A stretch of DNA of 19,424 bases from assembly GCF_006345805.1 (NCBI RefSeq), contig NW_021824237.1, positions 1 to 19,424 on the forward strand. Direction: 5' to 3'. Position 1 is the first letter of the stretch. Each line of letters starts with the position of its first letter. Position numbers and translations under genes: made by a program. The notes below the pieces were generated by a model. That model did no database searches. It was not told the DNA's origin and was given only the letters and a program-made list of their open reading frames with translations. Shown piece by piece: positions 9,208 to 9,268 of the stretch. The DNA is from Octopus sinensis. Lineage: Eukaryota.

Positions 9208-9268
9208 CATGTATCGCCTTGACCTTCGAAACGTGGAGTAGATGAAACAAAGGCGACTGAAGAAGGGG
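9208..9268 (+). ncRNA. Candidate permuted hammerhead ribozyme, copy 2 (predicted cleavage after A9213)
   Basis: Stem III ACGTG 9231-9235 / CATGT 9208-9212; stem I TCGCCTT 9214-9220 / AAGGCGA 9250-9256 (7 perfect bp); core CTGAAGA 9257-9263, GAA 9228-9230, GTA triplet 9211-9213; stem II GGGG 9265-9268 / CTTC 9224-9227. Confidence 0.6.

Follow-up and report, generated by a model that had tools for sequence, protein, structure and literature searches.

At positions 8309-9479 of the 19,424-nucleotide (nt) stretch analysed here (the window: positions 1 to 19,424 of the forward strand of contig NW_021824237.1, Octopus sinensis assembly GCF_006345805.1) lies a non-coding Penelope-like repeat with a hammerhead-like motif in its 3' part, ~300 nt upstream of the repeat's 3' end. 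An earlier annotation of the window, referred to below as the original prediction, had drawn at 9208-9268 a hammerhead core with its strands in reversed cyclic order. The motif is real and not a chance occurrence. Comparison of its copies indicates that it probably (roughly 70%) represents a cis-folding, self-cleaving hammerhead that spans 130 nt, is reversed (non-circularly permuted) in strand order and is further opened between A9 and G10.1. The features of the locus are the following.

8309..8680, + strand: upstream partial unit, 5'-truncated and pseudo-LTR (long terminal repeat)-like, 96% identical to 9105-9474
8343..8472, + strand: damaged ribozyme copy 1, with G.G in stem I and A.C in helix X (from sequence comparison); fails the descriptor
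8681..9479, + strand: one full non-coding Penelope-like unit of ~796 nt, with a tail at 8681-8723
9139..9268, + strand: whole predicted ribozyme, copy 2, a reverse-order hammerhead opened at A9/G10.1 (from covariation in a 40-copy alignment)
9139..9143, + strand: 5' strand of helix X, CCCCU, partner 9264-9268 (93.5% paired; one pair is C-G in 21 copies and A-U in 15)
9144..9186, + strand: hairpin predicted to stack on helix X, base CCGC/GCGG, inner UCAAAUU/AAUUUGA at 9158-77, running directly into G10.1
9187..9191, + strand: G10.1 strand of stem II, GAAGG, partner CCUUC at 9223-9227 (93.5% paired, double changes in 3/5 pairs)
9196..9202, + strand: 5' strand of the interaction helix (stems I-II), partner 9241-9247 (96.3% paired, 32 copies)
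9208..9213, + strand: 3' strand of stem III, CAUGU (9208-12), and the predicted cleavage nucleotide A17, which is A9213 of a GUA triplet (double changes in 4/5 pairs)
9214..9220, + strand: 3' strand of stem I, UCGCCUU, partner 9250-9256 (90% paired, double changes in 4/6 pairs)
9223..9235, + strand: G block, made up of CCUUC (stem II), GAA (from 9228) and ACGUG (stem III)
9241..9263, + strand: 3' strand of the interaction helix, 5' strand of stem I AAGGCGA (9250-56) and CUGAAGA (9257-63)
9264..9268, + strand: 3' strand of helix X, AGGGG, directly after A9 (-7.4 kcal/mol with 9139-43)

The repeat is evident from the match of 8309-8677 to 9105-9474 (96%, period 796). Other copies in the genome share a common right end and have variable left ends, frequently an inverted partial copy, and partial tandems; many end at the equivalent of 8723 and continue into (TA)n. 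These features (shared 3' ends, variable 5' truncation, tandems, inverted 5' copies and a tail) bear out the Penelope-like setting named in the original prediction. Truncation, tandems, inverted copies and a tail are marks listed for Penelope-like elements, Naiads included, in the part of PMC8557442 consulted (Craig et al. 2021), and these end features identify the + strand as the RNA strand. The unit start (8681) nearly always follows the end of another unit, which makes the unit a closed cycle. Exact matches to a 26-place core pattern number 3,592 in the 2.72-Gb genome, against 0 for the reversed pattern used as control. Scans for open reading frames (ORFs) covering the unit and 168 loci revealed no coding partner joined to the repeat, and two reading frames of the unit gave no Pfam match. 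Probing the genome with a Naiad GIY-YIG fragment to find the autonomous partner brought up decayed copies, and no DNA match was found between the window unit and 50 GIY-YIG-bearing loci of this genome. A Naiad-type ORF (N-terminal GIY-YIG followed by reverse transcriptase) is absent from the unit.

On re-reading, the elements of the original drawing are all in place: the 3-nt GAC linker from stem I to stem II, CUUC at 9224-27, GAA-ACGUG at 9228-35, the 14-nt linker, the extra A, and GGGG at 9265-68. The reversed order (cleavage strand, GAAA strand, CUGANGA) can be seen in the sequence and is matched by a loose S-G-C descriptor. Run over both strands of the whole window, this descriptor found a single match, copy 2; in 3,000 dinucleotide shuffles of the 796-nt unit it found none. 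As anticipated, models for types I, II and III miss the motif: an Rfam scan of the window gave no hammerhead down to E=5 and matched only microsatellite-driven miRNA noise. Offered as a candidate new topology, the order itself is that of type-SGC, already validated in vitro (PMC10085705; Eckert, Friedrich, Weinberg, Weinberg 2023; HRIMA-1). As for the second copy announced at 8412-8472, it does lie 796 nt upstream, but it is not intact: its stem I strand reads AAGGGGA, so that a G.G mismatch, previously unremarked, lies three pairs away from the core, and its GGAG, offered as covariation support for stem II, instead damages helix X. Copy 1 is thus probably impaired. The C-to-G change in its stem I (window 8458) recurs in locus L123 and, in the tandems L124/L125, in one of the units. 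This position may be prone to mutation, or one of the ribozymes in a tandem may be selected against.

To assess the helices, 127 copies were clustered into about a dozen subfamilies, from which 32 representatives were taken (at most three per cluster; one 2-copy cluster and single copies were left out). Stems I and III covary across copies as originally drawn, with UCGCC/GGCGA, UUGUC/GACAA and UCGCU/AGCGA seen for stem I and CAUGU/ACGUG, CGCGU/ACGCG and UACGU/ACGUA for stem III. Moreover, an upstream GUUUC pairs with GAAAC immediately before stem I in 96.3%. This pairing, initially treated as a 'splint', is the published interaction helix, which connects stems I and II at their far ends, with its usual neighbours; its family form is GUUUC/GAAAC, of which copy 2 lacks the G-C pair, and in family C (below) it reads CUGUCU/AGACAG. 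A candidate arrangement combining the splint with an outer helix AAGGAA/UUCCUU was rejected: within one family the outer helix is 93.8% paired and shows no double change, and across families it (AAGGAAA/UUUCCUU in the original prediction) is 74% paired vs 91-94% for the alternative helices. Stem II as drawn (GGGG/CUUC) is invariant in the 32 representatives, and that alignment is therefore no test of it.

An upstream partner for stem II was suggested by the published 3' ends of Naiads and then tested with family C, a related, older family (1,441 exact 17-mer matches; 66-80% identity to the window unit). Twenty-four window-family copies were aligned with 16 of 30 family C loci picked for a complete upstream part. 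In these 40 copies from two families the split model leaves 90.8% of cells paired over 32 pairs, compared with 35-46% in slid controls. Double changes occur in 17/32 pairs, and double-change cells number 195 vs 76.1 in shuffles (0/500 reach it). The upstream stem II changes from GAAGG/CCUUC to GAGCA/UGCUC (three double changes) and, in an Ovul-type family, to GACAC/GUGUC; helix X, which directly follows CUGANGA, changes from CCCCU/AGGGG to ACCCU/AGGGU; and the base of the hairpin occurs as CCGC/GCGG, CUGC/GCAG and CCAU/AUGG. The hairpin is 91.2% paired with double changes in 3/4 pairs, and it is present in the minimum free energy fold. Copy 2 keeps every helix, with the interaction helix weakened. 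The catalytic core (CUGANGA, GAAA, NUH) is present; the samples were partly selected on core patterns, and to that extent the conservation of CUGA follows from the selection. Position 17, which was not a selection criterion, is C in 23, A in 15, U in 2 and G in 0 of the 40 copies. The linker between stems I and II measures 2-4 nt in all families seen.

Comparison between families separates the two possible stem II partners. Among copies with stems I and III intact, the upstream stem II has at least four Watson-Crick pairs in 92/103, 8/12 and 4/5 copies of three families, and the drawn, downstream one in 1/103, 1/12 and 0/5 of the same copies. A fourth family (1,158 exact 18-mer matches in the genome; 17 copies aligned; L332:2100-2235 (+), L361-L376) has AAGACA/UGUCUU as helix X, a GNRA-capped hairpin CCUCC-GAAA-GGAGG, and GGCCCC/GGGGCC as stem II. 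Three further motif families in this genome thus have the layout of the window family, and the upstream partner fits all four; the downstream partner fits two, via G.U pairs.

Several observations weigh against the favoured interpretation. The double changes represent a handful of subfamily splits rather than independent events, and a measure of pairs changed on both sides is no better than in shuffles (122/500); for these reasons the wiring rests on the agreement between families and not on a P value. In the fourth family GGCCCC/GGGGCC is intact in 6/17 copies and blurred within a G run in the remainder, and in the Ovul-type family helix X is weak (at least four Watson-Crick pairs in 1/5). 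Nested-only folding prefers a competing rod (z about 0), a result that is uninformative for a triple pseudoknot. Finally, no locus ties the window family to a coding element, and the family belongs in the Naiad clade at most as a non-autonomous dependant.

The drawn stem II also remains 95% paired in the 40-copy alignment through G.U pairs, with G10.1-C11.1 in 38/40 and one double-change pair, and in the SGC ribozymes of PMC10085705 (the portion consulted) an extra base after A9 is the norm. The motif could accordingly be a plain type-SGC ribozyme as first drawn, in which CUGAAGA-A-GGGG pairs with CUUC and the upstream helices serve as a switch or accessory. We consider this quite unlikely. 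The drawn helix reads G-C, G.U, G.U, G-C, with G.U at two or three of four pairs across copies, and its computed duplex energy is 0.0 kcal/mol vs -4.6 and -7.4 kcal/mol for the upstream stem II and helix X that it would displace. It breaks at the third pair in the Ovul-type family, at the second in the fourth family, and, judged by eye in the consensus 3' ends, at the first pair in Naiad_Amil and Naiad_Plae. GGGG/CUUC can be drawn, but the upstream partner is better supported.

If the RNA is cut, new copies might begin at the cut end, and we mapped 5' junctions in 92 copies on chromosome C1 collected through a 21-mer ~130 nt downstream of the core (91 after removal of one duplicate). The first 14 nt past the predicted cut, between 9213 and 9214, held 14 junctions vs 2.1 expected (P=6e-8; 1e-6 after correction for 21 windows), and the 13 nt before it held 1. 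Per 100 copy-nt, the junction rate was 0.30 well downstream, 0.31 over stem I/CUGAAGA (+14 to +41), 0.74 at +1 to +13, 1.91 in the 14 nt starting at the cut, and 0.17-0.32 upstream, with 0.17 just 5' of the scissile bond. The same pile-up appeared in a sample whose anchor lay within the motif, and in the subfamily whose stem I starts with UUGU several copies start at the cut site itself (L062, L085, L141). The excess fits a partly cleaved RNA template in vivo but is not proof of one.

The junctions do not all speak for cleavage. Their mode is at -7 (the site being at -13), 6-8 nt inside the 3' product, with a tail to +13; only 3/14 fall within 3 nt after the first base; and most copies run through the site (50/64 at risk). 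Junctions at the mode usually lie at a T or TA common to the target, and we tentatively attribute the shift to such microhomology. A mode 6 nt off the site and read-through in most copies would equally suit a conserved non-catalytic or long-dead fold, for instance an element for reverse-transcriptase recognition or packaging, in which the junction excess reflects stalling in a tight structure. This explanation appears unlikely: four families, and distant phyla as well, retain the full consensus (CUGANGA, CGAAA, NUH); junctions are not in excess at the structure's 3' edge (the +14 to +41 interval above), which is where stalling would be expected; and their rate drops abruptly immediately 5' of the scissile bond.

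Assembly of the core only between two molecules or tandem units, by strand swapping, is very improbable. Minimal Penelope hammerheads can act as dimers, and the element is often tandem. Dimeric cleavage is known for some retrozyme hammerheads (PMC7229834, in part). However, 130 nt is enough for all seven helices to form, many of the genomic copies stand alone, and the linkers match those of the SGC ribozymes for which rates in cis were measured (PMC10085705).

In the favoured cis-folding, opened hammerhead, the order from 5' to 3' would be: the 5' strand of X, the hairpin, the G10.1 strand of stem II, the interaction helix and the cleavage strand (stem III, GUA, stem I), followed by the 3-nt linker, the stem II partner, GAAA, stem III, the interaction helix, stem I, CUGANGA and X. 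Read as a circle, this would be the same cycle as SGC and CSG, with the RNA ends entering at A9/G10.1, where SGC has one extra base. Helix X, coaxially stacked on the hairpin, would clamp the nick and bring A9 and G10.1 side by side, and G12 and G8 would catalyse the cut after A9213, as hammerhead chemistry and the experiments on SGC lead one to expect. Since CUGAAGA and X are transcribed last, the core would be complete only at the end of the 130 nt. The ~796-nt non-autonomous repeat may reach (TA)n tracts through target-primed reverse transcription in trans, the mobilising enzyme presumably being that of a Naiad; the window family shows no link to a Naiad coding copy, and mobilisation by Naiads is for that reason something we infer. 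A cut after position 17 would yield unit-length RNAs from tandem or read-through transcripts. Reverse transcriptase stopping at the cut end would yield copies that start just 3' of the site, and uncut or religated templates would yield longer and tandem copies. As the products would be held by X, stem II, the interaction helix and stem III, religation should be favoured, which could explain read-through and tandems, and the RNA of the element, its products joined by these four helices, may religate and circularise. Fold-back inversions that turn within or beside the ribozyme were seen at L110/L111, L141, L173, L288 and L292, the one in L141 at the cut site.

The connection with Naiads comes from their consensus 3' ends. 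The last 500-600 nt of 24 of the 54 Naiad consensuses in File S5 of the supplement to PMC8557442, named by file order, were inspected by eye, and a ribozyme was recognised in 12: seven with the split layout (one degenerate) and five of type-CSG. The split layout is clear in Naiad_Amil, Naiad-3_Chem, Naiad-2_Movir, Naiad_Plae, Naiad_Obim and Naiad_Ovul, whose hosts are a coral, a hydrozoan, a box jellyfish, an acanthocephalan and two octopuses, and degenerate in Naiad_Esco. Naiad_Parc, Naiad-3_Nbra, Naiad_Hcon, Naiad_Hpol and Naiad_Smim (nematode, spider) carry type-CSG ribozymes with near-perfect stems and 6-16 bp interaction helices; only two CSG sequences are published in the portion of PMC10085705 covered. 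By eye, no complete ribozyme was recognised in the other 12, namely Mmer, Omin, Ebur, 3_Dst, Ppla, CGi, Mcor, Adux, 1_Chem, 1_Movir, 1_Pfla and Tama, over the same 500-600 nt. Craig et al. report no canonical hammerhead for Naiads in the text consulted, only 'HHR_core' and 'HHR_half_core' marks (HHR, hammerhead ribozyme); seven of eight HHR_half_core records were viewed, of which five parse clearly, one is degenerate and one did not parse. Stems I and II of the fourth octopus family closely resemble those of the acanthocephalan Naiad_Plae.

Within this genome, the Naiad_Ovul motif has 61 exact matches, and at L342, L345, L348, L350 and L355 an Ovul-type ribozyme region lies downstream, on the same strand, of a decayed N-terminal Naiad-type GIY-YIG, with matches below the Pfam cut-off. 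At L350:~3080 (+) a decayed Naiad copy (GIY-YIG, a reverse transcriptase fragment, 3' untranslated region) stops at about the predicted cleavage triplet and continues into (TA)n, as if the 5' cleavage product had served as template; this is a single case. The window family resembles Naiads in 5' truncation, partial tandems, inverted 5' copies, short tail and (TA)n targets, and their 3' ends show the same ribozyme layout by eye (PMC8557442, in part); unlike them it lacks an ORF, and it shows no match at the DNA level to the Naiad-bearing loci compared. With less confidence than in the fold itself, we favour the broader view that this is a seventh natural hammerhead wiring, active, and a 3' ribozyme, in cnidarians, acanthocephalans and cephalopods, of Naiads and of the non-coding elements that depend on them, with nematode and spider Naiads using type-CSG.

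What is new here is the opening of the core between A9 and G10.1 and the occurrence in animal retrotransposons; reversed order is known. According to the parts of PMC10085705 consulted, in vitro cleavage by SGC and CSG forms runs at 0.004-0.19 per minute; these forms need four stems, one of them the interaction helix, and were found in metatranscriptomes and metagenomes, with no known organism save one weak GCS candidate. The six possible orders considered there presume that CUGANGA and its adjacent stems are unbreakable, and the patterns demanded CUGAUGA(U)G, and so missed the CUGAAGA-A motif. Like SGC, the octopus motif has the reverse cyclic order, a linker of ~3 nt between stems I and II, a stem I of ~5-6 bp and the full catalytic consensus, and one strand of its interaction helix comes after the G10.1 strand of stem II and the other before stem I. 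In SGC and CSG, CUGANGA is followed (after 0-1 base) by a stem II strand, whereas here that strand comes first and CUGANGA enters helix X. The cyclic order C-G-S of types I, II and III is reversed here. Animal non-LTR retrozymes are likewise non-coding tandem units with one hammerhead each, for which mobilisation by Penelope-like elements has been proposed (PMC7229834; bioRxiv 10.64898/2026.07.22.740005; both in part); they have type I hammerheads, units of ~170-400 nt and circular RNA that has been shown, compared with ~796 nt and a reversed split core here. Type I retrozymes show low self-ligation and efficient ligation by RtcB (PMC7229834), and the preprint, in the text consulted, treats type I only. 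The PK hammerhead also combines a core with an added upstream helix ('helix IV') and an altered helix II region (PMC11300833, in part; Zhan et al. 2024), but its strand order is standard, A9 is joined to G10.1, and the loop of the extra helix pairs with loop II. The literature searched, with most subscription journals outside its coverage, contained no permuted hammerheads in Naiads or animal genomes and no opening at A9/G10.1.

The surroundings of the repeat hold other repeats. Dispersed SINE (short interspersed nuclear element)-like repeats, which we take to be octopus tRNA-derived SINEs, lie at 8160-8300, 3-135, 11756-11893, 10811-11192 and 12342-12721 of the window, and the Penelope-like element begins directly after the 3' end of the one at 8160-8300. 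There are also a 210-nt palindromic repeat (859-1070), a 209-nt direct duplication (4319-4526 / 4627-4835, 97% identical) and another dispersed repeat family (2647-2958 and 17653-17885); the remaining window is mostly microsatellite. Elsewhere in the genome, other repeats contain hammerhead-like motifs in the ordinary order CUGANGA...GAAA (L357:~3777 (+); L359, both strands).

If this interpretation is correct, the list of hammerhead layouts, thought complete at six, would be extended, and the A9-G10.1 link would be dispensable. These would be, within the literature searched, the first non-circularly permuted ribozymes in the genomes of known organisms, present as thousands of copies in animals rather than as rare oddities of metatranscriptomes, and the genome's own 5' junctions would record cleavage in vivo. 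Because SGC, CSG and the split form would be circular permutations of one reversed cycle, tandem Penelope copies would make it simple to pass from one to another. A ribozyme whose core is completed by the strand transcribed last and whose products stay clamped may, in addition, be a useful engineering part. The role of hammerheads in Penelope retrotransposition could then be tested from genome data alone by mapping 5' junctions. Finally, the finding would answer the puzzle of Naiads that 'lack canonical HHR' yet carry 'half cores', and it would undo the argument that Penelope-like elements manage without hammerheads.
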